DNA from: an uncultured Gemmatimonadaceae bacterium
GTDB taxonomy: Bacteria > Gemmatimonadota > Gemmatimonadetes > Longimicrobiales > RSA9
Reading direction: 5' to 3'
Length of the DNA stretch: 64,000 nt
Assembly (NCBI GenBank): GCA_964410055.1
Contig: CAYPGK010000001.1
Coordinates: forward strand, 4,101 to 68,100
Below, in pieces: positions 19,407 to 51,531 of this stretch (position 1 is its first letter; each line of letters opens with the position of its first letter). Below the pieces are notes generated by a model that saw only the letters and a list, made by a program, of their open reading frames with translations, was not told the origin of the DNA and searched no databases. Made by a program: the position numbers and the translations under genes.

Positions 19407-20345
19407 ATGAGAGTGATCGAAGCGAACGACGTACATCGGGTTCTGGAGTTTCCGGCGCTGATCGAGGCGTTGCGCCGGGCCTTCGGATCGCCGGCGGGGA
19501 TGCCGCAGCGGCTGATGTTTCCGTTGGACCCGGATGGAGGTTCGAGGGACGTGTTCGCGTTGCTGCCGTCGTGGAACGCGGACGTGATCGGGGTGAAGGC
19601 GTTCACGTACCTGCCCGGGAACGCGGCCGAGGGTCGTCCGATCCTGCACTCGAAGATCCTGCTGTTCGATCGTCGGACGGGTGAGCCGATGGATCTGGTG
19701 GACGGGACGACGGTGACGTACTGGCGTACTGCGGCGATGGCGGGTCTTGCGGCGGACTATCTGGCGCGGAAGGATGCGCGTCGGCTGCTGGTCTGCGGGA
19801 CGGGTCATCTGGCGCCGTACATGGCGCTCGCGCACGCGTCGGTGCGTCCGATCGAGGAGGTGGTGATCTGGGGGCGGAACCCGGAGAAGGCCGAGCGGGT
19901 GATCGAGCAGATCGGCGAGCGCCGCTCGGACCTGCGCTGCCGCGTGGCGGGGAACCTGGAGGAGGAGGCGGGTGCGGCGGACGTGATCAGTTGCGTGACG
20001 GCGTCGCCGGATCCGATCATTCTGGGCCGCTGGGTCCGGCCGGGCACGCACACGGATTTCTTCGGCAACCACGAGCGGGACGGGCGTGAGTGCGACACCG
20101 AGATGGTGGTGAAGTCCCGGGTCTACGTGGACAGCCGGGTGAACGTGCTGGCCGAGGCGGGTGAGCTGTTGATTCCGATTTCGGAGGGCCGATTCTCCGC
20201 GGACGATGTGTTGGGCGAGTTGGCGGACCTGTGCTCCGGCGCGGTGAAGGGGCGGGGCTCGGACGACGAGATCACGATGTTCAAGTCCGTGGGCACCGCG
20301 CTCGCGGACCTCGCTGCCGCGGAACTGGTATCGCGGAGCCTGTAG
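19407..20345 (+). CDS. ornithine cyclodeaminase/mu-crystallin family protein (candidate pyrroline-2-carboxylate reductase)
   Basis: Family-typical TYWRTAAMAGLAA and VCGTGHLAP Rossmann motifs. 312 aa. The specific substrate is inference. Confidence 0.9.
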   Translation: MRVIEANDVHRVLEFPALIEALRRAFGSPAGMPQRLMFPLDPDGGSRDVFALLPSWNADVIGVKAFTYLPGNAAEGRPILHSKILLFDRRTGEPMDLVDGTTVTYWRTAAMAGLAADYLARKDARRLLVCGTGHLAPYMALAHASVRPIEEVVIWGRNPEKAERVIEQIGERRSDLRCRVAGNLEEEAGAADVISCVTASPDPIILGRWVRPGTHTDFFGNHERDGRECDTEMVVKSRVYVDSRVNVLAEAGELLIPISEGRFSADDVLGELADLCSGAVKGRGSDDEITMFKSVGTALADLAAAELVSRSL

Positions 20346-20396
20346 TCGAGGGCGCCGCCCTCGGATGGACCACAACACGGGAGACGAGGAGGATCC

Positions 20397-21308
20397 ATGA
20401 CTCCGAACTGGCAGGGCGTATATCCAGCCCTACCCACCCAGTTCCACGAAGATCTATCCGTCGACATCGATGGAACGATGCGTCATTTCGAGGCGCTCAT
20501 CGACGCGGGCGTTCACGGAATGGTGCTTTTGGGGACGATCGGGGAGAACAACTCGCTCACCGCGGAAGAGAAGCGTGAAGTGCTGCGCGCGGGAGTGGAG
20601 GTTGCGCGGGGGCGCATCCCGGTCCTTTCTGGCGTGTCCGAGCTGACGACGGCCGCGGCGTGCCGGTACGCGGCGGATGCGGCGGAGATCGGCATCGACG
20701 GGCTGATGGTGCTCCCGGCGATGGCGTACCGTGCGGACCGTCGGGAAGCGGTCGCGCACTTCCGCGCGGTCGCGGCGGCGGGCCCGCTGCCGATCCTGTG
20801 CTACAACAACCCGAAGGTCTACGGTGTGGACCTGACGCCGGACGTCTTCGTCGAGCTCGCGGACGTGGAGACGATCGTCGCGGTCAAGGAGGCGTCGGGT
20901 GATCCGCGTCGCCTCACGGACATCGTGAACGCCGTCGGCGATCGCTACATCCTCTTCGCCGGGCTGGACAACGTGGTGCTCGAGAGCGTGATGCTCGGCG
21001 CCGTCGGCACGGTGTTCGGCGTGGTGAACGCGTTCCCGGCCGAGACCCTCTACATGTGGGACCTCGCCATGCAGGGCGAGTGGGAGAAGGCGGTGGAAAT
21101 CTACCGCTGGATGATGCCGCTCCTGCACCTGGACGACCATCCGAAGCTCGTCCAGTACATGAAGCTGATGTCGCAGGAGTGCGGCTACGGCCACGAACGC
21201 GTGCGGCTGCCGCGCCTGACGCTGGCGGGCGAGGAGCGTGAGCGCGTCCTGTCCATCATCCGGAAGGCCAAGGAGACGCGTCCCGCGATCCCCGTGGCTG
21301 CGGGCTGA
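20397..21308 (+). CDS. dihydrodipicolinate synthase (DapA) family lyase (candidate pyrroline-4-hydroxy-2-carboxylate deaminase)
   Basis: GTIGENNSLT and Schiff-base lysine context IVAVKEASGD. 303 aa. The deaminase role is inferred from the hydroxyproline genes in this window. Confidence 0.9.
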   Translation: MTPNWQGVYPALPTQFHEDLSVDIDGTMRHFEALIDAGVHGMVLLGTIGENNSLTAEEKREVLRAGVEVARGRIPVLSGVSELTTAAACRYAADAAEIGIDGLMVLPAMAYRADRREAVAHFRAVAAAGPLPILCYNNPKVYGVDLTPDVFVELADVETIVAVKEASGDPRRLTDIVNAVGDRYILFAGLDNVVLESVMLGAVGTVFGVVNAFPAETLYMWDLAMQGEWEKAVEIYRWMMPLLHLDDHPKLVQYMKLMSQECGYGHERVRLPRLTLAGEERERVLSIIRKAKETRPAIPVAAG

Positions 21309-21336
21309 GGCCGCTCCAGGCTGCGGTCGTGAACTT

Positions 21337-21439: not shown

Positions 21440-22747
21440 TCAGCCGCGCGCAATGCCGCTGCGTTCGCGCAGTGCGTCGCTCAATTTCCCGGCGTACGCG
21501 AGCGACAGGATCTGCACCGTGTGCATTACGGGCGGCGGTGCGCCGGCGCCGTTGCCGTTCAGGTGCGTGCGGATCTGGACCATGCACCCGATGTTGCCCA
21601 GCGCGACGAGGTCGGCGCCTGTGCGTCGCACGGCATCGGCCTTCATCTGTCCGAGCTCCTCGGCGATCTCCGGCTGGTCGATGTTGTAGGTGCCTGCGGA
21701 GCCGCAGCAGCGCTCGCCGTCGTCGAGCTCGACCAGTTCGAGCCCCGGGATGGCGCGGAGCAGCCGGCGCGGCTCGGAGCGGATCTGTTGCGCGTGGCAG
21801 AGGTGGCAGGCGTCGTGGTAGGCCACGCGCAGCGGCTCCTCGAGCGCGGGCGGCGGCACGAGGCCGAGGCGGTCGAGGAAGACGGAGATGTCGACGGCGC
21901 GCTCGGAGAGGGCGCGCGCGGCCTCCTCTTCCGGCTGGCCCGCGAACATCAGCGGGTACTCCCGGATCCCGGAGCCGCACCCCGCGGCGTTGACGATGAT
22001 GGCGTCGACGTCGTCGGGGAACGCGTCGAGGAGTTTACGCGCGTGCGCGCGTGCGGAGTCGGCCGCGCCGACGTGCCACCCCAGGGCGCCGCAGCACCCT
22101 TGACCCCTCGGGACGACGACTTCGACGCCGTTTCGCGTGAGGACGTCGATCGTGGCGCGGTTGATCGCCGGCTCCATCGCCTCCTGGACGCACCCGACGA
22201 GGAGCGCGACGCGCGCCCGGCGCGGGCCGATGGCCGGGATGGTCTCCGGGATCGCCTCGGCCGCCGCCAGCCTGTCCGGGACCAGGTCCAGCATGGGGCG
22301 GAGCGGGGCGGGGACGGCGGGGCGCAGCCAGCGGGTCATGCGGCCGGCCGTCACGGCGAGGCGGAAGCGCCGCGGGTAGGGGAGGGTGTTCAGCGTCAGC
22401 CACCGCTTGAGCCGATCGATGAGCGGCCTGCGGGTCTCCTCCTCCGAGACGGCACGGAACGGGAGCAGCAGCTTGTGGTACGGCACGCCCGACGGGCACG
22501 CGGACTCGCACGCCAGGCAGCCGAGGCAACGGTCCACGTGCTCGGCGACGGCGCTGGTGTCGAGCTCGCCTTCCAGCGCGCCCTTCATCAGGTAGATCCG
22601 CCCGCGCGGCGAATCCATCTCCTCGCCGAGGACCTGGTACGTCGGACAGGTGGGCAGACAGAAGCCGCAGTGCACGCATGCGCTCGCGGCTTCGGCCATG
22701 GCTTTCCCGTACGCGCCCAGCTCCTCGATCGGGATGCGGTGCTGCAT
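21440..22747 (-). CDS. glcF: glycolate oxidase iron-sulfur subunit
   Basis: Two ferredoxin-type motifs CVHCGFCLPTCP and CLGCLACESACP, plus C-terminal CCG-type repeats. ATG 22747. Confidence 0.85.
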   Translation of the reverse strand: MQHRIPIEELGAYGKAMAEAASACVHCGFCLPTCPTYQVLGEEMDSPRGRIYLMKGALEGELDTSAVAEHVDRCLGCLACESACPSGVPYHKLLLPFRAVSEEETRRPLIDRLKRWLTLNTLPYPRRFRLAVTAGRMTRWLRPAVPAPLRPMLDLVPDRLAAAEAIPETIPAIGPRRARVALLVGCVQEAMEPAINRATIDVLTRNGVEVVVPRGQGCCGALGWHVGAADSARAHARKLLDAFPDDVDAIIVNAAGCGSGIREYPLMFAGQPEEEAARALSERAVDISVFLDRLGLVPPPALEEPLRVAYHDACHLCHAQQIRSEPRRLLRAIPGLELVELDDGERCCGSAGTYNIDQPEIAEELGQMKADAVRRTGADLVALGNIGCMVQIRTHLNGNGAGAPPPVMHTVQILSLAYAGKLSDALRERSGIARG

Positions 22748-22764
22748 TCTCCTACCCTGCTCGT

Positions 22765-23886
22765 CTATGCTGAAACCGCGGCCGACACGGCGTCGCCTTC
22801 CGGCACCAGCGCCGGGAACCGGCCATCGGGGTCGAGCGCGCTCTTGATGCGACGCGCGAAGACGGCCGCGCCCGTGTCGATCGGGCCGAGCCACGGCAGC
22901 GTGCCTTCCTGCGCCGGCCCGCGCACGACGAGGCCGGCGAGTCCGGACGTATCCAGCTCACCGAGCGGCCGGTCGGCGGGCCAGGCGATCCATGCGACGT
23001 TCCCGGCGACGGCGTAGCGCCGCGCCACACCCTGCGCATCGAGCGCCCGCTCCAGCTCGGCGAGGCGGCGGAGGGTGAGGGGGACCTTGATGATCCGGCT
23101 CTCGGGCGCCCAGGCGAAGTCCCTGAGCCCCTGCCAGTACGCCTCCTCCTCCTCGCCGGCGACGAGATCGAAGCGCCGGCCGGTCGCGGCGCCGACCCGG
23201 GCCGCGTGCACGTCCAGCGTCGCTTCCTCGCCCGAGACACGCACCACGAGCGTGCCGGGTGGCTCGAAGTCCAGCGCCTCCAGGTCGAAGGGCCGGCGTC
23301 CGAGCTCGGCCATGACCGCGACCGCGTCCTCGACCCCGTCGCAGGCGATGCGGATCGTGCGCCATGCAGGCGGTGTGGGGAAGACCTTGAAGGACAGCTC
23401 GACCAGCACGCCGAGGCGGCCGAGGCTGCCGACCACGAGCTTCGGCACGTCGAAGCCGGCGGCGTTCTTTACGACCTTCCCTCCGCCCCGGACGAGCCGC
23501 CCGGTCCCGTCGACCAGCCGCACGCCGATGATGAAGTCTCGGATCCCCCCGTACCGGAGCCGGCCGGAGCCGTTCAGCCCCGCCGCGACCGTGCCGCCGA
23601 GCGTCGCGCCGGCGCGGGCGAGGGGCGGGTCGAAGGGGAGGTGTTGGCCGTGGCGGGCCAGGAGCGCCTGGATCTCCTCCAGCGGCGTGCCCGCGAGCGC
23701 GGTGAAGGTGAACTCGTCCGGGTCGTACTCGACCACGCCGGAGAGCCGCGTCGTGTCCAGGTACACCGCGCCCGCCTCATGGGCGACGAGCGGCGCCTTC
23801 GTCCGCGCGCCGTGCGCAATGATGAGCCCATGCTCGCGCACCGCCGCGACGACATCCTCGATCCGTTCGGGCACGAGCGCAGTCAC
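22765..23886 (-). CDS. glcE: glycolate oxidase FAD-binding subunit
   Basis: FAD_binding_4-like N-terminus. GTG start at 23886 overlaps the glcD stop by 4 nt. Position between glcD and glcF. Confidence 0.8.
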
Positions 23887-25388
23887 GTCGCCTCCACAGC
23901 AGAGCGGTCTTCCGGCGCGCCGCCGCTCGCATGAGCGGCCGATCTCGCGTACCCTGCCGCACCGCCGGCTGCTGCGGCCGAACCATTCCCGGCCCCGAAC
24001 TCTTCGGCAGCCGGGAACATCTTCCCCCGGTTCGCGACCTGCTTGGGATCGAGGGCGAGGCGCAGCCGCTGGAACGCGTCGACGTCGTCCGGCGCGAACA
24101 TGCGTGTGAGGAACGCGCGCTTCTCCACGCCCACACCGTGCTCGCCGGTGATGGAGCCGCCCAGCTCGATGCAGAGGTCGAGGATGCGGCCGGCCAGCGC
24201 CTCGGCGCGCTCGAACTCGCCCTCGCGCTGGCCGTCGTAGAGGATGAGGGGGTGCAGGTTGCCGTCGCCCGCGTGGAAGACGTTGGCGACGCGCAGCCCG
24301 TACTCGCGCGACAGCTCGCCAATGCGGCGCAGCGCCAGGCCGAGCCGGCTGCGCGGGACGACGCCGTCCTGCACGATGTAGTCCGGGCTGATGCGGCCGA
24401 CGGCGGAGAAGGCGCTCTTGCGCCCCTTCCAGATCGCCGCCCGCTCCTCGGGCGACGTGGCCGTGTGCACGCCGATCGCGCCGGACTCCTGGATCAGCGC
24501 ATCCAGCCGGCGCCGCTCGGCATCGAGCAGGTCGCGCGGCGCCTCCAGCTCGACGATCAGGACCGCTTCCGCGCCCGGCGGATACTCGGTGTGCACCGCG
24601 GCGGCGGCCGCCTCGATCGCCGTCGCATCCATGATCTCCATCGCCGACGGGAGCAGCCCCGCGGCCACGATGCGCGCCACGGCGTCGCCCGCCTCCTCGA
24701 TCGTGCCGTAGCCGGCCAGGATCGTGTACGACGCCTCGGCGATGGGGAGCAGCCGCAGCGTGATCTCGAGCGCGATCCCGAAGAGCCCCTCGCTGCCGAC
24801 GAAGAGGCCGGTCCAGTCCGGGCCGATCGACTCGAGGCTGTCGCCGCCCAGCTCGACCACGTCGCCCGTGGGGAGCACTGCCTTCAGCCCCAGGACGTGG
24901 TTCGCGGTCATGCCGTACTTGAGGCAGTGCGCGCCGCCGGAGTTGAAACCGATGTTCCCGCCGACGGTGCAGACTTGCTGGCTGGAAGGGTCGGGCGCGT
25001 AGTGGAGCCCGTGTGCCGCCGCGGCGCGCGTGACCTGGAGGTTGATCACGCCCGGCTCGACCACGGCGATGCGCCGGTCCGGATCCAGTTCGAGGATCCG
25101 GTTCAGCCGGTTCAGCGCGATGACGACGCCGCCCTCGACGGGGAGCGAGCCGCCCGAGAGGCTGGTTCCGCTCCCGCGCGGGACGAACGGTACGCCGAGG
25201 TCGTGACAGAGACGGACGGTGCGGATGACCTCATCGGCCGACTCCGCGACGACGACTGCCGTGGGAGAGACGGCGAACGCAGTGAGTGCGTCGGACTCGT
25301 ACGCCGCGAGCTGCGCGCGGCCCAGGAGCAGACGTCGCTCCGGGACGATCGCGCGCAGCCCTCGGATCAGTTCGGTGGTGGGCGCCAT
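23883..25388 (-). CDS. glcD: glycolate oxidase / FAD-linked 2-hydroxyacid oxidase subunit
   Basis: ATG 25388 ([11 protein letters not shown]). FAD-binding [12 protein letters not shown]-terminal [11 protein letters not shown]. Confidence 0.9.
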
Positions 25389-25458
25389 CAGCCGGCGCGG
25401 CGGCGGGGCTCGATGCGCCCCCGCGCCGCCCTCCGGTGCCGATGGCCGAACGGCTCGG

Positions 25459-26298
25459 TCATGCCTGGAATCGGATCGACTTGAACTTGCGCGTCTGCTC
25501 CTCGATCGCCGCTTCCGTGGCCAGCCGCTCGATGCTCGACGCGCCGAAGAAGCCGACCACGCCCTTGGTCCGCTCCAGAACATACTGCGCGTCCTCCGGG
25601 TGCGCGATGGGGCCGCCGTGGCAGAGCACCATCACGTCCGGGTTGACGGACTTGGCCGCGTCGTGGATCGCCTGGATGCGGTCGACCGCCTCGTCCAGCG
25701 TCATCGCCGTCTTGTCGACGCCGATCGAGCCGCCGACCGTCGTATGCACGTGCGCGACGACCACGTCCGCGCCCGCCTCCGTGAACCAGCGCGCCGTTTC
25801 CTCGTCGAAGACGTACGGGCAGGTGAGCATCCCCAGCTCGTGCGCCTGGGCGATCATCTCGACCTCGAGCCGGATGCTCATCCCCGTCTCCTCGAGCGCG
25901 CGACGGAACTCGCCGTCGATCAGCCCGACCGTCGGGAAGTTCTGCACGCCGTCGAAGCCCATCTCCTTCAACTGCGGCAGGAACACCCGCATCATGCGGA
26001 ACGGATCGGTGCCACAGACGCCCGCCAGCACCGGCGTGTCCTTCACGACCGGCAGGACCTCGCGCGCCATGTCCACCACGATGGCGTTCGCATCGCCGTA
26101 GGGCATGAGGCCGCTCAGGCTCCCGCGACCCGCCATCCGGTAACGGCCCGAGTTGTAGATGATGATCAGGTCGACGCCGCCCCGTTCGGCGAACTTCGCC
26201 GAGATCCCCGTCCCCGCGCCGGCACCGATGATCGGCTTGCCGGCCTCGACCTGCGAACGGAGACGACGCAGACACTCCTCGTAACCGATGAAAGGCAT
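25459..26298 (-). CDS. phosphoenolpyruvate hydrolase-like TIM-barrel protein (C-terminal-half homologue of plant Tm-1)
   Basis: ATG 26298 ([10 protein letters not shown]). Recognised family pattern [35 protein letters not shown]...[11 protein letters not shown]. Confidence 0.8.
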
Positions 26299-26305
26299 GA
26301 CTCCC

Positions 26306-27523
26306 TCAATCCTTTCGTTGTGGCATGACGCGCAACAGCTCGTCCACGAGCGCGCGCGCGAATTCACGATCGTTGATGTGGGCGTCCACTTCCACGATCC
26401 GCACGTTCGGGCCGACGTTGGCCCGCAACGTGTCGAAGAGCACCCGGTCGGCCTCCGGGTCGTGGAACGGCTGCCCCTCCGCGTCGATCATGCTGACGCC
26501 CCGCAGCGGGAGCACCAGCACCACCGGGCCCTGCGCCCGGCTGAGCTGCGCTGCGATCCGACGCCCGATCTCCTCGCACTCCGCAGGCGTCGTCCGCATG
26601 AGCGTGACCGACGGATTGTGGCGGTACAGGTTCCGATCACGGAACTTCTCCGGGACCGTCTCGATCCCGCCGAAGTTCACCATGTCCAGCGCGCCGACCG
26701 AAACGACCTGCGGGATCCCCGCCCGACCGGCCGCCGACAGACGGTCCGGCCCGGCCGACAGCACCCCGCCCACCACCTCGTCGCACCACTCCGTCGTCGT
26801 CACGTCCAGCACGCCGGCGAAGTAGCCGTCGTCGATCAGCCCTTCCATTGCCCGGCCGCCCGCGCCCGTCGCATGGAAGACCATGACGTCGTAGCCCGCC
26901 TCCTCCAGCATCTGGCGCGCGGCCGTCACGCACGGCGTGGTCACCCCGAACATCGTCGCCGCGATCAGCGGCCGGCTCTCTGCCTGCGGGACCTCCTGCT
27001 CCACCATCCCGCAGATCGCTCCCGCGGCGTTCGCGAGCACCCGGCGCAGCAGCGGGTTCAGCCCCGCAATGTCCACGACCGAGTACATCATCGTGAGGTC
27101 CTTGATGTCCACGTACGGGGCCGTGTTGCCCGACATCATCGTGGACACCATCATCTTCGGCACGCCCACCGGCAGGACCCGCATCGCCGCGGTCACCATC
27201 GCCGTGCCGCCGCCGCCGCCCAGACCCAGCACGCCGTCGAAGCGGCCCTCCTCGTGCAGACGCGCCACGATCTTGCGCGCACCCGCGAGCATCACTTCGA
27301 TCGCTTCTCCACGATCGCCGCGCGCGCGCAGCTCCTCCAGCGTCGCGCCCCCGGCGCGAGCCACCTCGTCCGCACCGATGTCCGCCTCGATCTGCGGATC
27401 CCCGAGAACCCCCAGGTCGAGGATCAGGACCTCATGGCCGCGCGCGCGGATCAGATCGCGAACGTAGCCGTACTCCTCGCCCTTCGTGTCGAGCGTGCCG
27501 ACCAGCAGGATCGTCCGCGCCAC
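26306..27523 (-). CDS. UPF0261 family protein (Tm-1-like ATP-binding, N-terminal-half homologue of plant Tm-1)
   Basis: [20 protein letters not shown]...GLGGGGGT...[11 protein letters not shown] pattern typical of UPF0261. 405 aa. Confidence 0.85.
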
Positions 27524-27536
27524 GACGACCTCCCCG

Positions 27537-27977
27537 TCAATGACCCGCCGCCGCGGAGCCCGCGCTCCGAAGCGACCGCCACGGCTCCTCCTGCGACACG
27601 TCCACCACCGCCGGCCCCTCGCTGCGCGCAGGCGACAGGATCGCCAGGAACACCAGCGTCTCCTCCCCCACGTTGTACGTCCCGTGCACCTCGCCGCGAG
27701 GAATGTGCGCCATCTCGCCCGGGCCCAACACCCGGCTCTCCTGGCCGACCCACTGCTCCGCCTTCCCAGAGATCACGTAGATGATCTCCTCCAGCTCCGG
27801 GTGCGTATGGAACGCATGACCGGCGCCCGGCGGCATGTGCACCCGCACGAGCTGCAGATCCTCCGCCGCCGTCAGCCCCGGTCGGCACAGCCAGTCGTGG
27901 GGTCCCCACGGCAGCAGTTCGACTTCCTTCTCCCGATCCGTGACGAAACGGTGTGGCGCGCTCGAACTCATATCCAC
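27537..27977 (-). CDS. cupin domain protein
   Basis: Cupin motifs HTHPELEEIIYVISG and GEMAHIPRGEVHG. 146 aa. Confidence 0.8.
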   Translation of the reverse strand: MDMSSSAPHRFVTDREKEVELLPWGPHDWLCRPGLTAAEDLQLVRVHMPPGAGHAFHTHPELEEIIYVISGKAEQWVGQESRVLGPGEMAHIPRGEVHGTYNVGEETLVFLAILSPARSEGPAVVDVSQEEPWRSLRSAGSAAAGH

Positions 27978-28054
27978 CGACTCCGGGCTGGGTTAGGGGC
28001 GGCGTCGCGGCGCCGCGCTCTCGTGTGGTTGCGTGCCTCAGGCAGGAGGCCATA

Positions 28055-44700: not shown

Positions 44701-44809
44701 CACGTCGCTCGCGAACGTCGCCCGCCGCATCCCGGCGGAGCTGGCCGACGACTTCGCTCGCGTCGCGAGCCGCCTGGGCTTCGACCCGGCGGCCGGCGCC
44801 CGGCGGTGA
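41753..44809 (+). CDS. ThuA-domain / PVC-type membrane-bound-dehydrogenase-domain / HEAT-repeat lipoprotein, lacking the usual CxxCH heme domain
   Basis: ATG 41753. Lipobox VLLAAC. ThuA-like RVLFLGDNGHH...VVVHSASASF...FYTAWGHD. Middle propeller-like GRLWVVES...DTDGDGQAD. C-terminal HEAT-like repeats. The lipobox Cys is the only Cys in the protein. Confidence 0.8.
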   Translation: MNVPGRIARALRSGLPAVLLAACAPAGVEAPAPTPAPVKAAPVALSTKAAPAPAANRVRVLFLGDNGHHRPTERAKSVLPVLAHNGIDLFYTDDPADLSPEVLKDYHTLVFYNNQPWISRDQLASLTSFLENGGGLVVVHSASASFQNSDEFIRIVGAAFKSHGTGTFRAKRVADHPVVQGVPNFESWDETYIHTKHNPDRTVLEVRVEDGHEEPYTWVRNYGQGRVFYTAWGHDHRTWGNEGFQQLLTQAIKWTAGDWAFNLKAAEPTPATTKLAVPLPIYERPPAPWNTLAGFVDSAQVPLEPEESYALTTLRPGFRIEPFASEPMIRNIMDFTWDERGRLWVVESTDYPNTVLPDGEPGGDRILILEDTDGDGQADTVKVFADGLNLATSLVFANGGLIVAQPPHIFFFKDTDGDDRADEKRILFSGWPRNDTHGSVSNLRYGFDNQVWGSVGYNGFRGEVGGVRFGRGSDAILMGAGYFRFGPDGSYLDYVARTSNNTWGVGLSEDGHVFGSTANRNASNFVHIPGRYYRELIGQTPTLPPIADRQDVFPLRDIFQVDQFGMYTAGTAHEIYTARAFPREYWNRVAFVADPTAHAVGMFELIPDGSGYRAKNRWNFIASRDGWQSPIQVKVGPDGALWVSDFYSLVVQHNPTPEGMERGPGNAYETPNRDKERARIFRVVYEGAPEPAIKSLADATPAELVAALRDDNMFWRFTAQRLLVERGERDVVPALVELASDHTIDELGLNPGALHALWTLEGLGALESDPRALEAARRALHHPSASLRRAALMMLPRDGRLLDDIFAAGILPDRTSPHKVDYTVGSAVLQDADAQVRLTALLALSELPASPRATSAIVELMTTPQNARDRWMPDAAAIAGVRQGTDVAVALLRYQPHERLAQDTAYMAGIARTVQLMAHHFAMKQDVGALVTLLEAVPGANTRIAAGVLTGIAGGPADEQGRQRGGPGGWPEGTPAELTAAQRTSLANVARRIPAELADDFARVASRLGFDPAAGARR

Positions 44810-44846
44810 CCGCGCCTCCTGCAACACCGAACGTAGAGGTACCGAG

Positions 44847-45371
44847 ATGTTTCGTAGGGATCGATTCGCGTTCACTCGTCGGCACCGGGCACGCGGAGGG
44901 ATCCTCCCGCCGCTCCTGGCCGCCGCCGCGATCCTCTTCCTCGGCCAGGGCGCCCTGCACGCGCAGGCGCCCGCCGCCGAGCTGCCCCGGCCGGGCGCGC
45001 CGGTCGACACCGTCATCACCATCCGCACCACGGGCAGCAACCTCGAGTTCGCGCCCTCGCAGATCGCGGTGAAGGCAGGCACGCGCGTCCGTATTCGTTA
45101 CATCAACGACGGGACCCTCCCCCACAACATCGTGCTGGTGAAGGACGAGGCCGACATCGACATGCTCGGGATGGCCGCCTTCTCCGCCGGGGAGACCGGG
45201 TACGTCCCCGTCGAGCACGCCGACCGCATGTACGCCTACAGCGAGCTCGCCGTCCCCGGGACCACCGTCGAGATCGAGTTCACGGCTCCACCGCCGGGCG
45301 AGTACTTCTACGTGTGCCTCTACCCGGGTCACTACAACATGATGATCGGGACGCTGAGATCGCTCCCGTAG
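44847..45371 (+). CDS. type-1 (blue) copper cupredoxin, azurin-type ligand spacing
   Basis: ATG 44847, 38 nt after the upstream stop. Signal peptide with RR. Ligand candidates PHNIV...YVCLYPGHYNMM (C-x4-H-x3-M). Confidence 0.85.
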   Translation: MFRRDRFAFTRRHRARGGILPPLLAAAAILFLGQGALHAQAPAAELPRPGAPVDTVITIRTTGSNLEFAPSQIAVKAGTRVRIRYINDGTLPHNIVLVKDEADIDMLGMAAFSAGETGYVPVEHADRMYAYSELAVPGTTVEIEFTAPPPGEYFYVCLYPGHYNMMIGTLRSLP

Positions 45372-45416: not shown

Positions 45417-45524
45417 GACCCTCCGCCTCCACCCACCGGACCGGGGCACCCCCGAACCCGCGATTCGAGTCACCGTCGCGCCGACTCGCCGCCCGTCCGC
45501 CCTAGCAACATCCGAGACAACGCT

Positions 45525-45537
45525 GGATATCGTATAG
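45525..45537. promoter_or_regulatory. dyad-motif site f (GGATATCGTATAG)
   Basis: 119 nt upstream of the GntR ATG. Confidence 0.45.
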
Positions 45538-45626
45538 AGTTCGGGGTATTTTTCTTCAGGTGACGTATGGTGTGGCGCAGCGTTCAGATCGCGGGTCCGT
45601 CGCGCTTGCGGCGCGGCCGGCGTGTG

Positions 45627-45639
45627 GGATATCCTATCC
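45627..45639. promoter_or_regulatory. dyad-motif site g (GGATATCCTATCC, perfect inverted repeat)
   Basis: 17 nt upstream of the GntR ATG. GGATA-TCC-TATCC is perfectly symmetric. Confidence 0.5.
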
Positions 45640-45655
45640 AAATCCCGAAAGGAGC

Positions 45656-46393
45656 ATGGCCATGACCAGGTCCAGCCAGGGCCAGACACGGACCAACACA
45701 GGGGTGCGTGGGGCAGGGAGCGCTGTGCCGCCGTTCCGGCGGCAGACGGTCGTGACGATGACGCTCGAGGCGCTGCGCGAGCGGATCCTGCGCGGCGATT
45801 ATCCCGAGGGTGCGCCGCTGCGGCAGGACGCGATCGCGGTCGAGTTCGGGGTGAGCCGGATCCCGGTCCGCGAGGCGCTGCGCCAGCTCGAGGCGGAGGG
45901 GCTGGTGACGATCAGCCCGCACCAGGGTGCGACGGTCTCGACGCTGTCGATCGACGAAGTACGTGAGTTGTTCGAGCTGCGGGCGTTGATCGAGTCGGAC
46001 CTTCTCCGTCGGGCGATTCCGCAACTGACGGAATCGGATCTGAAGCGAGCGGCGGAGATCCTGACGAAGTACGAGGAGGCGTTCCGCAGCGGCGACGTGA
46101 GTGCGTGGGGGGAGCTGAACTGGGAGTTCCACTCGACGCTGCTCACGCCGGCGGAGCGGCCGCTCACGATGGGGGTCGTGGAGAGTCTGCAGAACCAGAG
46201 CGACCGGTACATCCGGCTGCAGCTCTCGCTGACGGGTGGGCAGTCGCGGGCGAACGACGAGCATCACGCGATCCTGGACGCGGTGCGTCACGAGGAGGTG
46301 GACCGCGCGTGTGCGCTCCTGGCGGCGCACATCACGGGAGCGGGCCGCTCGCTCGTGAACTTCCTGCGGGAGCACCGGGGCCTGGACGGGTGA
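45656..46393 (+). CDS. GntR family transcriptional regulator (FadR/FCD subfamily)
   Basis: ATG 45656 after AAAGGAG. Winged HTH AVEFGVSRIPVREALRQLEAEGLV and a helical FCD-like C-domain. Confidence 0.9.
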   Translation: MAMTRSSQGQTRTNTGVRGAGSAVPPFRRQTVVTMTLEALRERILRGDYPEGAPLRQDAIAVEFGVSRIPVREALRQLEAEGLVTISPHQGATVSTLSIDEVRELFELRALIESDLLRRAIPQLTESDLKRAAEILTKYEEAFRSGDVSAWGELNWEFHSTLLTPAERPLTMGVVESLQNQSDRYIRLQLSLTGGQSRANDEHHAILDAVRHEEVDRACALLAAHITGAGRSLVNFLREHRGLDG

Positions 46394-46445: not shown

Positions 46446-47903
46446 ATGGCAGTGATCACGGAAACGAAGCCCGTGCGGTCGTACATCGGCGGGCATTTCA
46501 GGGAGAGCGGGTCGGACCGCTACATCCCGAGCATCAACCCGTCGGACAGCGGGAACGTGGTGGCGCGGGTCCCGGAGGGCACGCCGGAGGACGTGGAGCT
46601 GGCTGTGGCCGCGGCGGCGGGTGCGCTGGATGGCTGGCGTCGCATGTCGGGTCCGGCGCGGGCGGAGCATCTGTACCGCTGGGCCGGTGTGATCGAGGCG
46701 CGCCGTGAGGAGCTGGCGCGCGCGGTCGTGCGCGAGGTCGGCAAGCCGATCGTCGAGGCGCGTGGCGAGGTCCAGCGGTGCGTGGTGATCCTGCGGTATT
46801 ACGCGGGCGAGGCGGTTCGCGGGGTGGGGGAGGTGATCCCCGCGCAGGGGGAGGGGATGCTGCAGTTCACGCTGCGCGAGCCGCTGGGCGTGGTGGCGCT
46901 GGTCACGCCGTGGAACTTCCCCGTCGCGATCCCGCTCTGGAAGGCCGCGCCGGCGCTCGCATTCGGCAACACGGTCGTGCTGAAGCCGGCCGAGCAGTCC
47001 TCCCACGTGGCCGAGCTGCTCGCCGAGACGGCGCACGATGCGGAGCTCCCGCCGGGCGTCTTCAACGTGCTCCCCGGCGCGGGCGGCGTGGTGGGCGAGG
47101 CGCTGCTGCGGTCGGAGGCGGTGCGGGGGATCAGCTTCACCGGCTCGACGACGGTGGGCGCGCGCGTCGCCGCGATCGCTGCGGAGCGCAACGTCCGCTA
47201 CCAGACGGAGATGGGCGGCAAGAACGTGGCGATCGTGGCGGCGGATGCGGACCTCGCGCACGCCGCGCGCCTGACCGCCGCAGGCGCGATGCGCTACGCC
47301 GGGCAGAAGTGCACGGCGACGAGCCGGGTCGTGGTGGTGAAGGACGTTGCCGAGAAGTTCCTCGGGCTGCTCGCCGACGAGATCGCATCGCTGCCGCTCG
47401 GGCCGGTCGACGATGCGGCGGCGGCGGTCGGCCCGCTGATCAGTGAGGCGGCGCTCGAGCGGGTCCGCGATGCGCTCGCCGGTGCGGGCGGTGAGGTGGT
47501 GCGGGGCGGCGCCGCGCCGGCGGATCCGCGCTTCGCCCGGGGCTACTTCATCGAGCCGGCGCTGGTACGCGACGTCGCGCCCGACTCGCGGCTCGCGCAG
47601 GACGAGATCTTCGGGCCGGTCCTGGCCGCGTTCGTCGCAGAGGACCTGGACGAAGCGATCGAGCTGGCGAACCGTACGCGCTACGGGCTGAGCGCGTCGC
47701 TCTTCACGCGTGACCTCGGCTCGGCGCTCGACTACATCCGCCGCATCGAGGTCGGGCTGGTCCGGGTCAACGGCGACACGACGGGCGTCGACCCGCACGC
47801 GCCGTTCGGCGGGCTGAAAGCGTCGAGCTCCGGCAGCCGCGAGCAGGGTCCCGCGGCGCGGGAGTTCTACACGGAAATCAAGACGGTGCAGATCCAGGGG
47901 TGA
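46446..47903 (+). CDS. NAD(P)-dependent aldehyde dehydrogenase (candidate alpha-ketoglutarate semialdehyde dehydrogenase)
   Basis: ALDH motifs VTPWNFP, EMGGKN and catalytic GQKCTATSR. The specific role is inferred from neighbours. Confidence 0.9.
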   Translation: MAVITETKPVRSYIGGHFRESGSDRYIPSINPSDSGNVVARVPEGTPEDVELAVAAAAGALDGWRRMSGPARAEHLYRWAGVIEARREELARAVVREVGKPIVEARGEVQRCVVILRYYAGEAVRGVGEVIPAQGEGMLQFTLREPLGVVALVTPWNFPVAIPLWKAAPALAFGNTVVLKPAEQSSHVAELLAETAHDAELPPGVFNVLPGAGGVVGEALLRSEAVRGISFTGSTTVGARVAAIAAERNVRYQTEMGGKNVAIVAADADLAHAARLTAAGAMRYAGQKCTATSRVVVVKDVAEKFLGLLADEIASLPLGPVDDAAAAVGPLISEAALERVRDALAGAGGEVVRGGAAPADPRFARGYFIEPALVRDVAPDSRLAQDEIFGPVLAAFVAEDLDEAIELANRTRYGLSASLFTRDLGSALDYIRRIEVGLVRVNGDTTGVDPHAPFGGLKASSSGSREQGPAAREFYTEIKTVQIQG

Positions 47904-47922: not shown

Positions 47923-48873
47923 GTGGAGTTTCCTGAAACGATCAAGGTGGTCGACTCGCACACGGAGGGCGAGCCGACGCGTGTGGTGATCGAGGGTTGG
48001 CCTCTCCCCGAAGGCCGGACGATGGCCGAGCGCCGCGAGGACGTGGCGAAGCGGTTCGACCACCTTCGCAGCGCGGTCGTGCGCGAGCCGCGAGGTCACG
48101 AGGCGGTCGTGGGCGCGCTGCTCACTCCGCCGGTCGAGCCCGGCTCGGCGGCGGGCGTCATCTTCTTCAACAACGTCGGCTACCTCGGGATGTGCGGCCA
48201 CGGTCTGATCGGCGTGGTGCGTACGCTCGAGCACCTGGGCCGTCTTTCGCCCGGGCCGGTCCGGATCGACACCCCGGTGGGCACGGTCGGCGCGGAGCTG
48301 GGCGAGGGGGGCGCGGTCACGATCCGCAACGTGCCCGCCTACGCCCACGCGCTGGACGTGGCCGTGGAGGTGCCCGGCGTAGGCCGCGTGGTGGGCGACG
48401 TGGCGTGGGGCGGCAACTGGTTCTTCATCACCGAGCTCCCCGACGTGCCGCTCGAGCTCGCTCGCCTCGACGAGCTCATGCGCGCGACGCGGGCGATCCT
48501 GGACTCACTCGGGCCGCAGGGCGTGACGGGCGCGGAGAGCGGCGTGATCGACCACGTCGAGCTGACCGGCGCGCCGTCGGGCCCGGACGTGGATGCGCGC
48601 AACTTCGTCCTGTGTCCGGGCGGCGAGTACGACCGTTCGCCGTGCGGGACGGGGACCTCGGCGAAGATGGCGGCGCTGCACGCGCGCGGCGAGCTCGAAC
48701 CCGGCCAGGAGTGGCGCCAGGAGAGCATCACCGGCGGCCGCTTCACCGGCTGGCTCACGCGCGAAGGCGACGCGCTCGTCCCCTGGATCCGGGGCCGCGC
48801 CTTCGTGACCGGCGAGACCGTGCTGCGTTTCGACCCCGCGGACCCGTTCCGCGGCGGTTTCGGTCCCGCGTGA
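47923..48873 (+). CDS. 4-hydroxyproline 2-epimerase (proline racemase family)
   Basis: GTG 47923. VVDSHTEGEPTRVV. Both catalytic Cys are present (GMCGHG and SPCGTGTSA), which is the racemase/epimerase pattern rather than the dehydratase pattern. Confidence 0.9.
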   Translation: MEFPETIKVVDSHTEGEPTRVVIEGWPLPEGRTMAERREDVAKRFDHLRSAVVREPRGHEAVVGALLTPPVEPGSAAGVIFFNNVGYLGMCGHGLIGVVRTLEHLGRLSPGPVRIDTPVGTVGAELGEGGAVTIRNVPAYAHALDVAVEVPGVGRVVGDVAWGGNWFFITELPDVPLELARLDELMRATRAILDSLGPQGVTGAESGVIDHVELTGAPSGPDVDARNFVLCPGGEYDRSPCGTGTSAKMAALHARGELEPGQEWRQESITGGRFTGWLTREGDALVPWIRGRAFVTGETVLRFDPADPFRGGFGPA

Positions 48874-49988
48874 TGGCGCGGCCGGACGCGATCGTCGTCG
48901 GCGGCGGGATCGTCGGCGCCGCGTGCGCCTACGAGCTGGCCCGCGCCGGAATGCGGGTGCTGGTGCTGGACGCCGCGTGCGTCGGCGGCGGGACGACGGC
49001 CGCAGGGATGGGGCACGTCGTCGTCATGGACGACTCCGAGGCGCAGTTCGCGCTCTCGGCGTATTCGACCCGGCTCTGGCACGAGCTCGAGGCGGAGCTG
49101 CCGCGCGCGGCGGAGGTCGACCCGTGCGGCACGCTCTGGGTCGCGGAGGACGACGAGCAGTTCGAGGCGGTGCACGCGAAGCACGCCTTCTACACGTCGC
49201 GCGGCGTCGAGACGGAGGTCATCGACGGCGCCGAGGTCGCGCGGCTGGAGCCGAACCTGCGCGCGCCGCTCGCCGGCGCGCTCCGCGTCCCCGGCGACCG
49301 GGTGATCTACCCGCCTTTCGTTGCGCGCTGGCTCGTGGACCGCGCGCGAGACCTGGGCGCCACCCTCCGTGAGGGGGTCGCGGCCGAGCGTCTCGAGGAC
49401 CGGGCCGTCGTCGCGGGCGGCGAGCGGCTCGAGGCCGACGTCGTGATCAACGCGGCCGGCGCGGCCGCCGCCCGACTCATTCCCGAACTGCCGATCGTGC
49501 CCCGCAAGGGGCACCTCGCCATTACGGACCGCTACCCCGGCTTCTGCCGCCATCAGCTCGTCGAGCTGGGCTACCTCAAGAGCGCACACACGATGACGAC
49601 GGAGTCGGTGGCGTTCAACGTCCAGCCGCGCGCGACGGGTCAGCTCCTGATCGGCTCGTCGCGCGAGCTGGTGGGGTGGGACGCGTCGCAGAACCGTTCG
49701 ATCCTTCGGCGGATGCTCCGGCGGGCGACGGAGTTCATGCCCGGCCTCGCGCGGCTGACGGTGATCCGGACGTGGGTCGGCTTCCGCCCGGCGACGCCGG
49801 ACAACCTCCCGCTGATCGGGCGCTGGCCGGCGCTGGAGGGCGCGTGGATCGCCGCGGGGCACGAGGGCCTCGGGATCACGACGTCGCTCGGCACGGCGCG
49901 GCTCCTGGCCGACCAGATCCTCGGCCGCGATCCGGCGATCGATCCCGCGCCGTTCTCGCCCGACCGCGTGCTGGCGGTCCACGAGTAG
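48873..49988 (+). CDS. FAD-dependent oxidoreductase, DAO family (candidate D-hydroxyproline dehydrogenase beta subunit)
   Basis: ATG 48873 overlaps the upstream TGA (ATGA). Dinucleotide fold AIVVGGGIVGAACAYELA. Trimmed from ORF 47997..49988. Confidence 0.85.
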   Translation: MARPDAIVVGGGIVGAACAYELARAGMRVLVLDAACVGGGTTAAGMGHVVVMDDSEAQFALSAYSTRLWHELEAELPRAAEVDPCGTLWVAEDDEQFEAVHAKHAFYTSRGVETEVIDGAEVARLEPNLRAPLAGALRVPGDRVIYPPFVARWLVDRARDLGATLREGVAAERLEDRAVVAGGERLEADVVINAAGAAAARLIPELPIVPRKGHLAITDRYPGFCRHQLVELGYLKSAHTMTTESVAFNVQPRATGQLLIGSSRELVGWDASQNRSILRRMLRRATEFMPGLARLTVIRTWVGFRPATPDNLPLIGRWPALEGAWIAAGHEGLGITTSLGTARLLADQILGRDPAIDPAPFSPDRVLAVHE

Positions 49989-50003
49989 CAAGGAAGCAGG
50001 AAG

Positions 50004-50252
50004 ATGGTCTCCGAAGTCGAAATCGAGGTCGACGGCCGCGTGGTCCGCGCGCCGGCGGATGCGAGCGTCGCGGCGGTGCTCCTCTCCATTGGAGCCGGCG
50101 CGTTTCGTCGGTCGGTCACGGGCGAGGCGCGCCTGCCGCTGTGCGGGATGGGCACCTGTCAGGAGTGCCGCGTCACGATCGACGGCGTCGCGCACCGCCG
50201 GGCGTGCCTGACGCCGGTCCGCGCCGGGATGAGGGTCTCGACCGATGGCTGA
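50004..50252 (+). CDS. (2Fe-2S)-binding small subunit (candidate D-hydroxyproline dehydrogenase gamma subunit)
   Basis: 82 aa. Cys cluster LCGMGTCQECRV...RRAC, as in HcnA/sarcosine-oxidase-type small subunits. Confidence 0.8.
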   Translation: MVSEVEIEVDGRVVRAPADASVAAVLLSIGAGAFRRSVTGEARLPLCGMGTCQECRVTIDGVAHRRACLTPVRAGMRVSTDG

Positions 50253-51531
50253 GCGGGCGATTCGGGCGGAGATCGCCGTCGTCGGCGCAGGGCCGGCCGG
50301 TATCGCGGCGGCGGCACGCGCGGCGGAGGCCGGACGCGACGTCGTCGTCCTCGACGCCTCGCCGCGCCCCGGCGGGCAGATCTGGCGGCACCGTCGGCGC
50401 GACGAGCTGCCGGAGCAGGCGCGCACCTGGCTCGAGCGGTTCGACCGGTCGGGCGCGAAGCTGGTTTCGGGCGCGCAGGTGGTCGACGCGTGGGGCGCCG
50501 CGCCGGAAGGGCTCCACCTCCTGGCGGAGGCCGACGGCGAGCGCCTCGAGGTTTCGGCCGACCGGGTGATCCTGGCCACGGGCGCGCGCGAGCTCTTCCT
50601 CCCCTTCCCCGGCTGGACGCTCCCCAACGTCTTCGGCGTGGGCGGCGCGCAGGCGCTCCTCAAGGCGGGCACCCCGTTCGAGGGGAAGCGGGTCGTCGTC
50701 GCGGGCTCCGGTCCCCTGCTCCTCGCGGTCGGGGCGGCGCTCGTTGCGAAAGGCGCGCGCGTGTCGGTCGTGGCCGAACAGGCCGGCCGCGCGGCGCTCG
50801 CGCGCTTCGGCGCGACGCTGGTCCGCACGCCCGGCCGGATCCTCCAGGCCGCACGCCTCCGCTCCGAGCTCGGCGGCGCGCGCTACGCCATCGGCTGCTG
50901 GGTCACCCGCGCCGATGGCGACGACGCCGTGCGCGAGGTCACCCTCACCGACGGCCGCCGGAGCTGGACCGAGCCGTGCGACGTCCTCTGCACCGGCTAC
51001 GGGCTCGTCCCGAACACCGAACTCGCCGAGATGCTCGGCTGCATCGTGGACGGCGGAAAAGTCCGGGTCGATGCCTGGCAGCGCGCCTCGGTCGCCGGGG
51101 TGTACTGCGCGGGCGAGCCGACGGGGATCGCCGGCGTCGACGCCGCGCTCGCCGAGGGCGAGATCGCGGCGGCCCACGCCGTCGGCGCGGCCGACGACCG
51201 CCGGCGCCTCTTCGCCGTGCGGCGCCGTGAGCACCGCATCGCGCGCGCTCTCGAGCGGGCCTTCGCCCCGCGCGCCGAGCTCCGCGACCTGCCCCGGGAC
51301 GACACGATCCTCTGTCGCTGCGAGGACGTCACCCGCGAGATGGTCGACGCCGCCTGGTCGTTCCGTCAGGCCAAGCTCTACACCCGCATCGGGATGGGGC
51401 CGTGCCAGGCGCGGGTGTGCGGGCCCGCCTGCGCGTTCCTCTTCGGATGGAGCGGCCAGGCGACGCGCCTGCCCACGTCGCCGGCGGAGATCGGGATGCT
51501 CGCGGGCGAAGCCGCCGGAAACGAAGGTTAG
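50245..51531 (+). CDS. FAD/NAD(P)-binding pyridine-nucleotide oxidoreductase with BFD-like [2Fe-2S] segment (candidate D-hydroxyproline dehydrogenase alpha subunit)
   Basis: IAVVGAGPAGIAAAARA and VVVAGSGPLLLAVGAAL dinucleotide folds. C-terminal CRCEDVT...GPCQARVCG. 8-nt overlap with the upstream gene. Confidence 0.85.
   Translation: MAERAIRAEIAVVGAGPAGIAAAARAAEAGRDVVVLDASPRPGGQIWRHRRRDELPEQARTWLERFDRSGAKLVSGAQVVDAWGAAPEGLHLLAEADGERLEVSADRVILATGARELFLPFPGWTLPNVFGVGGAQALLKAGTPFEGKRVVVAGSGPLLLAVGAALVAKGARVSVVAEQAGRAALARFGATLVRTPGRILQAARLRSELGGARYAIGCWVTRADGDDAVREVTLTDGRRSWTEPCDVLCTGYGLVPNTELAEMLGCIVDGGKVRVDAWQRASVAGVYCAGEPTGIAGVDAALAEGEIAAAHAVGAADDRRRLFAVRRREHRIARALERAFAPRAELRDLPRDDTILCRCEDVTREMVDAAWSFRQAKLYTRIGMGPCQARVCGPACAFLFGWSGQATRLPTSPAEIGMLAGEAAGNEG

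Follow-up and report, generated by a model that had tools for sequence, protein, structure and literature searches.

We analyzed a 64-kb stretch of a contig from an uncultured, soil-type, Longimicrobiales-like Gemmatimonadota bacterium (CAYPGK010000001.1; hereafter the window, to which all coordinates refer) in which a SusC/SusD outer membrane pair, two secreted peptidase-like proteins, and a set of hydroxyproline catabolism genes share a conserved operator-like DNA element. We consider it somewhat better than even (probability about 0.55) that the block from 19.3 to 51.5 kb is a single regulon of a HypR-like GntR regulator for importing and burning hydroxyproline-rich (glyco)peptides of the extensin type, and that this window is a glycosidase-free derivative of such a system. 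An initial annotation of the same DNA had described positions 19407–51531 as a locus for collagen-like peptides rather than a glycan polysaccharide utilization locus (PUL). Its gene content was recovered in full, as every gene that it named was found in or near its place with Pfam and NCBIfam. Several genes that it did not mention also lie there: a Plug-only gene, an FG-GAP gene, a ThuA/DUF7133/HEAT gene with a cupredoxin gene, and a cupin-GlcDEF operon.

The shared element is a dyad of the form TTGGATA-N3-TATCCAA, 13–17 bp long, found by inspecting promoter regions, where it is a common AT-rich element in a window with a G+C content of ~70%. The pattern GGATANNNTAT has eight matches in the window compared with 0.11 expected. 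When shuffling was restricted to intergenic DNA, the mean was 0.02, and none of 5000 shuffles reached eight. The pattern TGGATANNNTAT has four matches compared with 0.02 expected. Operator sites are confined to 5 of 34 intergenic segments, all in one block, and a position weight matrix (PWM) built from all sites has matches only between 19 and 46 kb, the sole extra match being a weak one inside the SusC coding sequence. The dyad that the initial annotation had seen upstream of a DapA-like gene is real and reaches further than it had claimed, across five promoter regions.

Site 1 (19295..19311, CCTTATAATGTATCCAA, PWM score 22.6) lies 96 nt upstream of the OCD gene that precedes the DapA-like gene. 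The region between the cupin gene and SusC holds two sites, with site 2 (28053..28069, TAATATACATTATCCCC) closer to the cupin gene and site 3 (28176..28192, CCGAATATTATATCCAA) 132 nt ahead of the start codon of SusC. Site 4 (37934..37950, TTTTATATTATATCCCA, PWM score 27.1) is in the divergent promoter region of the S9 and DUF885 genes, and site 5 (40030..40046, TCGGATACGATATAAAA) is 79 nt upstream of a major facilitator superfamily (MFS) transporter gene's start codon. Sites 6 and 7 (45523..45641; CTGGATATCGTATAGAG at 45523 and TGGGATATCCTATCCAA at 45625) are upstream of the GntR gene, and the one at 45625 is a perfect dyad, GGATA-GGA-TATCC.

A motif of this composition could also be a generic promoter element of a 70% GC genome, its genes being unrelated and their juxtaposition due to chance. 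In many sites, the right half is TATAAn, similar to a −10 box, and AT-rich patches are rare and clustered in promoter regions. We nevertheless regard this explanation as very improbable, given the restriction of the motif to one block, the presence of ~37 other AT-rich patches in the window that lack it, and the occurrence of sites in both orientations relative to genes. In relatives, moreover, the element can be a perfect palindrome and tracks the same gene families despite altered gene order.

For this comparison, we used homologous loci in other genomes (numbered L001–L130). The dyad is found upstream of SusC in L081, L082, L085, L092, L093/L108, L116, L121, and L123, and two of these (L081 and L082) have two sites at the position equivalent to the cupin/SusC region of the window. 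It also precedes S9 and/or DUF885 genes (L007, L081, L082, L085, L122, and L123), GntR (L007, L083, L092, and L124), MFS (L081), malate synthase (L081 and L082), and OCD (L125), and lies directly upstream of GH127 genes in L093 and L122. In several relatives, the operator is the perfect palindrome TGGATACAATATCCA. The initial annotation had treated SusCD, the peptidases, and the hydroxyproline genes as one locus, and that proposal gains from an operator conserved at orthologous promoters and from recurrent synteny. These patterns support the view that the common operator ties SusCD, the prolyl peptidase, DUF885, and the hydroxyproline genes together functionally. Operator-like dyads were additionally observed inside SusC coding sequences, a weak one at 28927–28943 of the window and a perfect one at L123:7732–7746; as their positions are not homologous, they may be due to chance or may be internal regulatory sites.

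Genes predicted to act in hydroxyproline catabolism fall into two groups, all on the + strand. In the first, an aldehyde dehydrogenase (46446..47903) follows the GntR gene and is predicted from NCBIfam and operon context to be an LhpG-like alpha-ketoglutaric semialdehyde (alpha-KGSA) dehydrogenase. Next comes a Cys/Cys-type 4-hydroxyproline 2-epimerase of the Pro_racemase family (LhpA-like, 47923..48873) with the motifs GMCGHG and SPCGTG. Its placement with LhpA agrees with its seven best solved relatives, which are epimerase-like and include PA1268 (2AZP) at E = 1e-100 to 1e-106, compared with ~1e-55 for structurally characterized proline racemases. Three further genes, which overlap or are separated by 15-nt gaps and were assigned with Pfam, encode a DAO subunit (48870..49988), a 2Fe-2S Fer2_4 subunit (50004..50252), and an HcnB-like Pyr_redox_2/BFD subunit (50245..51531). 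This trio (48870..51531) has the LhpB/LhpE/LhpF-type composition of the three-subunit D-hydroxyproline dehydrogenase (PMC3958920), its specificity being predicted from families and gene order. The same DAO-Fer2-HcnB-type operon is present in L007 and L124.

The second group pairs an OCD/mu-crystallin family gene (19407..20345; Pfam OCD_Mu_crystall) with a DHDPS-family, DapA-like gene (20397..21308), and this gene pair is conserved in L125–L127 from other Gemmatimonadota. The former is predicted to encode an LhpI-like Delta1-pyrroline-2-carboxylate (Pyr2C)/piperideine-2-carboxylate (Pip2C) reductase. It passes the Pyr2C/Pip2C reductase equivalog model (NF004793, 420.9 bits versus a cut-off of 322) and scores 117 versus 400 on the narrower LhpI model NF045512. 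The latter is predicted from its TIGR00674 score and the context of its homologues to be an LhpC-like pyrroline-4-hydroxy-2-carboxylate (Pyr4H2C) deaminase, the step for which the initial annotation had named it as a candidate, provided that it was not a genuine DapA. It scored 169.8 bits with TIGR00674, below the equivalog cut-off of 206.15 for genuine DapA. Its best cultured homologue, 56% identical, is encoded on a Thalassospira marina plasmid in a hydroxyproline cluster with the order DHDPS-family, FAD oxidoreductase, 4-hydroxyproline epimerase, GntR, and proline-racemase family. Other homologues at 45%–48% identity are found within DAO-Fer2-HcnB-x-ALDH operons (L041 and L054). Deaminase function is therefore a credible prediction, and a role as L-2-keto-3-deoxyarabonate (L-KDA) dehydratase is possible by sequence. 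Because the closest cultured homologue of this gene sits in a canonical hydroxyproline cluster, the four-step trans-4-hydroxyproline pathway is, as judged from gene families, complete in the window, and the Pyr2C salvage step is predicted to be present too.

An LhpC-like DHDPS gene 54.5% identical to that of the window was also observed on a Rhizobium leguminosarum plasmid (NZ_CP030763, 49944–60556; L120), where its neighbors are a GntR regulator, an Xaa-Pro peptidase, a GH127-like protein with a beta-L-arabinofuranosidase domain, and a sugar ATP-binding cassette (ABC) transporter. The operator was not found in this plasmid locus. It is possibly a hydroxyproline-arabinoside utilization locus in rhizobia, repeating the same theme in another phylum.

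The candidate for binding the dyad is the GntR/FCD regulator at the head of the first group (45656..46393, +; Pfam), which we describe as HypR-like. It is 51% identical over 220 aa to the GntR protein of the Thalassospira hydroxyproline cluster, and a site resembling those of the window, TTGTATACAATATTCAA, precedes the LhpC-like gene of that cluster by ~90 nt. Because two operator sites precede the GntR gene itself, suggesting autoregulation, and because an FCD-type GntR gene lies adjacent to them, we infer that this protein is the likely operator binder.

Upstream of the hydroxyproline operon, the outer membrane module begins with a SusC/RagA-type TonB-dependent transporter of 986 aa (28324..31284, +) with CarboxypepD_reg, Plug, and barrel domains. 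It exceeds the cut-offs of TIGR04056 (693 bits versus 368) and the TIGR04057 signature (65.7 versus 46.2), placing it in the SusC/RagA family, and its length matches independent gene calls in other assemblies. After a 130-nt gap follows a SusD/RagB-type lipoprotein of 536 aa (31415..33025, +; Pfam SusD_RagB and SusD-like_3) with the lipobox ...VAAPAC. Its real start codon is 17 codons downstream of the longest open reading frame (ORF) start, and the protein is unusually conserved, with 67%–93% identity across >120 database clusters. Genes in the window were called by third-position GC and then annotated with Pfam and NCBIfam; the start codons of SusC (28324), SusD (31415), and DUF885 (38080), and likewise those of MFS (40125), the ThuA-type gene (41735), and GntR (45656), were fixed by independent gene calls in other assemblies.

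Two lipoproteins accompany the SusC/SusD pair. The first is a Plug-only lipoprotein of 160 aa (33335..33817, +) with a Pfam Plug domain, the TIGR04057 signature, and a SusC-type TonB-box-like stretch. A 247-aa ORF here could be taken for a SusC pseudogene fragment, and we rejected this possibility, as a Plug-only gene of ~160 aa is conserved in relatives. The protein is 72% identical to the L081 copy, follows SusD in ~25 related loci, and has 184 database homologues, with lengths of 147–172 aa among the 120 listed. By these comparisons, it appears to be a genuine free-standing plug protein, not a truncated SusC. We know of no described function for a free-standing Plug-only lipoprotein. The second is an FG-GAP beta-propeller lipoprotein of 498 aa (33888..35384, +), assigned from Pfam, synteny, and a lipobox, which is a conserved downstream partner. 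Across the ~45 orthologous SusCD loci examined, SusC, SusD, and the ~160-aa Plug-only lipoprotein form an invariant core, and the FG-GAP lipoprotein is usual.

Located 65 nt after the FG-GAP gene, a secreted S9B peptidase resembling dipeptidyl peptidase IV (DPP-IV) and prolyl tripeptidyl peptidase is encoded on the opposite strand (35450..37849, −), with DPPIV_N and Peptidase_S9 domains and a signal peptide. Its nucleophile motif, GGSAGG at residue 631, and domain content place it in the S9B family, with a predicted post-proline specificity. Its best solved relatives are entries 2D5L/2Z3W/2DCM, which we take to be the prolyl tripeptidyl peptidase of Porphyromonas gingivalis, and bacterial DPP4s come next. 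Across the shared promoter region lies a secreted DUF885 protein of 627 aa (38080..39963, +), a metallopeptidase-like protein with the sequence HHELIPGHH. Its only zinc motif is the variant HELIPGH (HExxxGH), as opposed to the canonical HExxH. To our knowledge, no activity has been described for any DUF885 member, and the solved structures 3U24, 3O0Y, and 3IUK are uncharacterized. A literature search on DUF885 function found nothing directly relevant. According to PMC12572635, the family belongs to the Peptidase_MA clan of Pfam. DUF885 adjoins S9 in L001, L004, L013, L007, L082, L085, and L123.

We found no glycoside hydrolase Pfam family in any of the ~47 genes across the 64 kb, and tblastn of relatives' GH31 and GH127 proteins against the window gave zero matches. 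The initial annotation had reported no glycoside hydrolase near SusCD, and its observation holds for the whole window. If a PUL is taken to need at least one glycoside hydrolase or lyase co-localized with SusCD, none is present within the 64-kb window, which is the part of the genome that this absence describes. Three independent assemblies bearing an identical Plug protein have the same glycoside-hydrolase-free gene order and gene lengths, which rules out an assembly artifact.

This absence invites the explanation that the locus is purely proteolytic, a SusCD system for unglycosylated Gly-Pro-Hyp peptides from collagen or gelatin with no role for glycans. Its glycosidase-free order in the closest relative, L085, as well as in the three assemblies, indicates that the lineage has stably lost GH31. 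A prolyl exopeptidase and a full hydroxyproline pathway are present, and Colwellia offers a described example of a collagen cluster with a TonB receptor (PMC7883544). We find this explanation doubtful. Where relatives' operons hold GH31 and/or GH127, their SusD orthologues are 67%–87% identical to that of the window, so ligand specificity is probably unchanged. No collagenase (M9 or U32) lies under the operator, the ThuA/DUF7133 operon and a FucP-like MFS gene remain under it, and glycosidases may sit elsewhere in the genome.

In relatives, the orthologous SusC-SusD module (62%–87% identity) carries GH31 and/or GH127 genes. Counting distinct loci, the module is accompanied by GH31 in ten, where it is often the next gene in the operon, by the beta-L-arabinofuranosidase family GH127 in seven, by S9 peptidases in seven, and by DUF885 in five. 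The GntR-hydroxyproline operon (L007, L092, and L124) and the MFS-ThuA/DUF7133-cupredoxin genes (with MFS at the locus edge in L081) are each partners in three, and L-arabinose catabolic genes (L121 and L122) and malate synthase are each partners in two. SusD was the better anchor for this comparison; with DUF885 as the anchor, another window gene was present in just 6 of 80 loci. Carbohydrate-active enzymes (CAZymes) are co-localized with SusCD in L007, L081–L083, L086, L092, L093, L104, and L121–L123. The most complete arrangement is that of L007, with the order SusC-SusD-FG-GAP-GH31-DUF885-S9-permease-GntR-ALDH-epimerase-DAO. In L124, SusC-SusD-Plug is followed at some distance by GntR-ALDH-Pro_racemase-DAO; L092 has GntR-ALDH divergent from SusC; L083 has MFS-ThuA-cupredoxin-GH31 directly upstream of SusC; and L082 has the order FG-GAP, GH31, malate synthase, S9, DUF885. 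GH31 and malate synthase are missing both from the window and from its closest relatives (L085 and L128–L130), and the glycosidase-free window would represent a derived state in which glycosidases were lost.

Two conserved proteins, of 763 aa (L124:4435–6723) and 573 aa (L124:7795–9513), were observed between the SusCD module and the GntR-hydroxyproline operon of L124. They also occur in L086, L093, L096, L101, and L116, the 573-aa gene being operator-preceded, and neither is in the window. Neither gave a Pfam or Protein Data Bank match, and they may be undescribed enzymes of the SusCD/hydroxyproline system.

These comparisons run counter to the phrase "rather than a glycan PUL" in the initial annotation, as glycosidases accompany orthologous modules and two loci have GH127 with the operator immediately upstream. 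Its own check, whether CAZymes belong to the same transcription units, comes out against it for the family and in its favor for the window of this genome. Its emphasis on collagen also loses ground, given relatives' glycosidases and the lack of a collagenase under the operator. GH127 is the family of HypBA1, which frees beta-L-arabinofuranose from extensin hydroxyproline (PMC7263609, PMC4454575, PMC10850190). The gene content of relatives, in which GH127, GH31, and L-arabinose genes stand under this operator, points to a glycosylated hydroxyproline-rich protein of the extensin/hydroxyproline-rich glycoprotein (HRGP) type as the ancestral substrate. Fragments of such glycoproteins match the family gene content best, ahead of pure glycans or plain collagen peptides.

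Other operator-preceded genes have less evident links to peptides. A six-gene operon on the − strand (21440..27971; Pfam) encodes cupin, UPF0261, PEP_hydrolase-like, and GlcD-, GlcE-, and GlcF-like proteins, with GlcF scoring 344 bits with NF008434 (cut-off 333). It is divergent from SusC, and this arrangement, with two operator sites in the region between, is conserved in L081, L082, L085, and L128. In relatives of this operon, a 703-aa TonB-dependent receptor is inserted, and an operator-preceded malate synthase lies nearby. Speculatively, glycolate oxidase and malate synthase would suit pentose breakdown through glycolaldehyde. On the + strand, a 520-aa MFS transporter (40125..41687; Pfam MFS_1) is weakly FucP-like, its only solved-structure match being the fucose permease FucP (E = 7.5e-5). 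It is followed by a 1024-aa dehydrogenase-like protein with ThuA, DUF7133, and HEAT domains and then a cupredoxin (44847–45371), together spanning 41735..45371 (Pfam, TIGR02604). The 1024-aa protein matches the N-terminal model "PVC-type heme-binding CxxCH protein," yet has no CxxCH motif. MFS accompanies the ThuA-type gene in L081, L083, and L085, and the ThuA-type gene is kept with MFS in L083–L085 and L128. Because of its ThuA-type/GH31 company in L083 and its match to FucP as the only solved structure, MFS is a likelier carrier of sugars than of peptides. Together with the ThuA/DUF7133/HEAT protein and cupredoxin, it looks sugar- or redox-related, not peptide-related. The L123 homologue of the ThuA-type gene is without ThuA and has cytochrome c domains instead, a domain swap that suggests interchangeable electron-transfer partners.

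Such genes bring up a further explanation, in which SusCD is an ordinary glycan importer, for alpha-glucosides or xylosides or for beta-L-arabino-oligosaccharides, the dyad serves a regulator with a wider role in carbon catabolism, and the hydroxyproline and peptidase genes are co-regulated neighbors that do not act on one substrate together. Among partners of the module, GH31 is the most frequent, followed by GH127, L-arabinose catabolic genes flank it in L121 and L122, and the MFS-ThuA-cupredoxin-GH31 genes of L083 stand immediately upstream of SusC. GlcDEF and malate synthase would likewise suit a pentose diet. We judge this explanation unlikely, as S9, DUF885, and the hydroxyproline operon recur beside the module in arrangements independent of one another, and each has an operator copy to itself. 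The closest relative of the regulator with a characterized context is the GntR protein of a hydroxyproline cluster, and the GH127 family itself acts on hydroxyproline-linked arabinose (PMC7263609, PMC4454575).

Several observations weigh against a hydroxyproline-rich glycopeptide regulon. Binding of the dyad by GntR is an inference, the footprinted Streptomyces HypR motif, CTNTGC(A/C)ATGTCAC, is unlike the dyad of the window, and the operator was not found upstream of the OCD-DapA pair in L126 and L127, two genomes that are more distant. Half of the regulon (cupin-UPF0261-PEP_hydrolase-GlcDEF and ThuA/DUF7133 with cupredoxin) falls outside a peptide model. No endopeptidase or collagenase is in the regulon, and no obvious inner membrane permease for peptides or hydroxyproline was found in the window, where MFS is sugar-like and relatives carry an AA_permease. 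Among the catabolic genes, the best NCBIfam model of the epimerase is the 4-hydroxyproline epimerase, but at 357 against an equivalog cut-off of 450, and that of the aldehyde dehydrogenase is the GucD alpha-KGSA dehydrogenase at 556 bits against 770. No trans-3-hydroxyproline dehydratase was found in the window. On the glycan side, sequence does not settle the specificity of relatives' GH31 enzymes, and GH127 enzymes also act on arabinan and rhamnogalacturonan-II, beyond hydroxyproline-arabinosides (PMC10850190).

If the block is a regulon for hydroxyproline-rich (glyco)peptides, the SusC barrel and SusD lid would capture oligomers at the outer membrane for TonB-energized import, accompanied by the Plug-only and FG-GAP propeller lipoproteins. 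In the periplasm, the S9B prolyl di/tripeptidyl-peptidase-like enzyme and the DUF885 metallopeptidase-like protein would trim these oligomers. In the cytoplasm, trans-4-hydroxy-L-proline would be converted to 2-oxoglutarate in four steps, by the Cys/Cys epimerase, the three-subunit D-hydroxyproline dehydrogenase, the DapA-like Pyr4H2C deaminase, whose gene is 25 kb distant, and the alpha-KGSA dehydrogenase. The OCD-family Pyr2C reductase would turn Pyr2C, from 3-hydroxyproline or D-proline, back into proline. The HypR-like GntR/FCD protein, encoded at the head of the hydroxyproline operon, would act on GGATA-N3-TATCC at the seven sites in five promoter regions. We expect the direction of regulation to be release of GntR from the dyad by hydroxyproline or a pathway intermediate.

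Parts of this arrangement resemble known systems. RagAB of P. gingivalis, like the window, combines a SusC/RagA barrel with a SusD/RagB lid and imports peptides (bioRxiv 10.1101/755678), and its host has DPP-IV and prolyl tripeptidyl peptidases, the kind that the S9 enzyme of the window resembles. RagAB is from another phylum; the importer of the window is a putative peptide transporter, is operator-linked to a catabolic pathway (and to glycosidases in relatives), and has the additional Plug-only and FG-GAP lipoproteins. The Lhp clusters of Pseudomonas aeruginosa and Azospirillum brasilense (LhpA/LhpBEF/LhpC/LhpG and LhpI; PMC3958920) share enzyme families and the subunit scheme with the window, and hydroxyproline clusters elsewhere are likewise under GntR-family control. 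In the window, by contrast, the deaminase and reductase genes stand apart from the other pathway genes, in an operon of two at a distance of 25 kb, a SusCD system stands in place of the usual amino acid transporter, and no LhpH dehydratase was found.

Bacteroidota PULs also have, beside SusC/SusD, accessory lipoproteins at the surface and a local regulator of their own, and in orthologous loci of the window module GH31 and GH127 belong to the same operon. The window differs in lying outside Bacteroidota, in having no CAZyme and instead peptidases and amino acid catabolism, and in having a GntR/FCD regulator rather than a hybrid two-component system, an extracytoplasmic function (ECF)/anti-sigma pair, or SusR. 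In Bifidobacterium longum, HypBA1/HypBA2/HypAA act on the hydroxyproline-linked beta-L-arabino-oligosaccharides of extensin (PMC7263609), and relatives' GH127 proteins belong to the HypBA1 family and share an operator with hydroxyproline genes. Bifidobacterium uses an ABC importer and only the sugar, while the window, which lacks GH127, is predicted to catabolize the peptide and hydroxyproline too. The predicted Colwellia collagen cluster (PMC7883544) is similar to the window in its TonB-dependent receptor, MFS, prolyl peptidases, and hydroxyproline pathway, including the Pyr4H2C deaminase. It differs in its M9 collagenase, its classical receptor without SusD, its regulator PutR, and the lack of glycosidases in relatives. 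Literature searches that combined SusD with hydroxyproline, or Gemmatimonadota with SusD and peptidases, brought up no directly relevant work. We found no description of the combination of SusCD, a GntR-controlled Lhp/hydroxyproline cluster, and HypBA-type degradation in Gemmatimonadota, or of its operator.

Genes bordering the regulon were also inspected. Upstream, a saccharopine-dehydrogenase-like gene (17095–18261, −) encodes 390 aa, compared with 611 aa for the longest ORF, as judged by comparison with L125 (90% identity). The interval thus freed, 1.1 kb at 18262–19294, contains a probable small lipoprotein ORF (~18605–19294, GC3 0.80) whose end abuts operator site 1, and L125 has an M1 peptidase and two small genes at the same position. 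Downstream, a class A penicillin-binding protein (51568–54129, −) precedes two PaaA/PaaC-family (phenylacetate-CoA oxygenase-like) genes (55621–58073, +), which lack the operator and have no relation to the regulon.

Gemmatimonadota are an abundant group that is seldom brought into culture. In soils and sediments, organic carbon and nitrogen are present in large amounts as hydroxyproline-rich glycoproteins (extensins, arabinogalactan proteins, and algal wall proteins) and as collagen, and the bacterial consumers and uptake routes of hydroxyproline-rich proteins are poorly known. The nearest relatives of the proteins in the window are from Gemmatimonadota metagenome-assembled genomes, mainly Longimicrobiales, and we tentatively raise a broader possibility, at less than even odds, that SusC, SusD, Plug, and FG-GAP form a phylum-wide SusCD "utilisome" for plant or algal cell wall hydroxyproline-rich glycoproteins under a HypR-like GntR regulator. 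With the same reservation, its regulon might span glycopeptide import, deglycosylation by GH127 and GH31, prolyl peptidases, and hydroxyproline catabolism, the window being a glycosidase-free variant. If so, it would be the first description of a glycopeptide SusCD system from beyond Bacteroidota, and it would widen SusCD biology past both that phylum and pure glycans. The work also provides physiological context for DUF885, the Plug-only lipoprotein, and the UPF0261/PEP_hydrolase-like and ThuA-DUF7133 families. With its candidate operator/regulator pair, the conserved, operator-defined regulon offers a testable handle on the diet of Gemmatimonadota.

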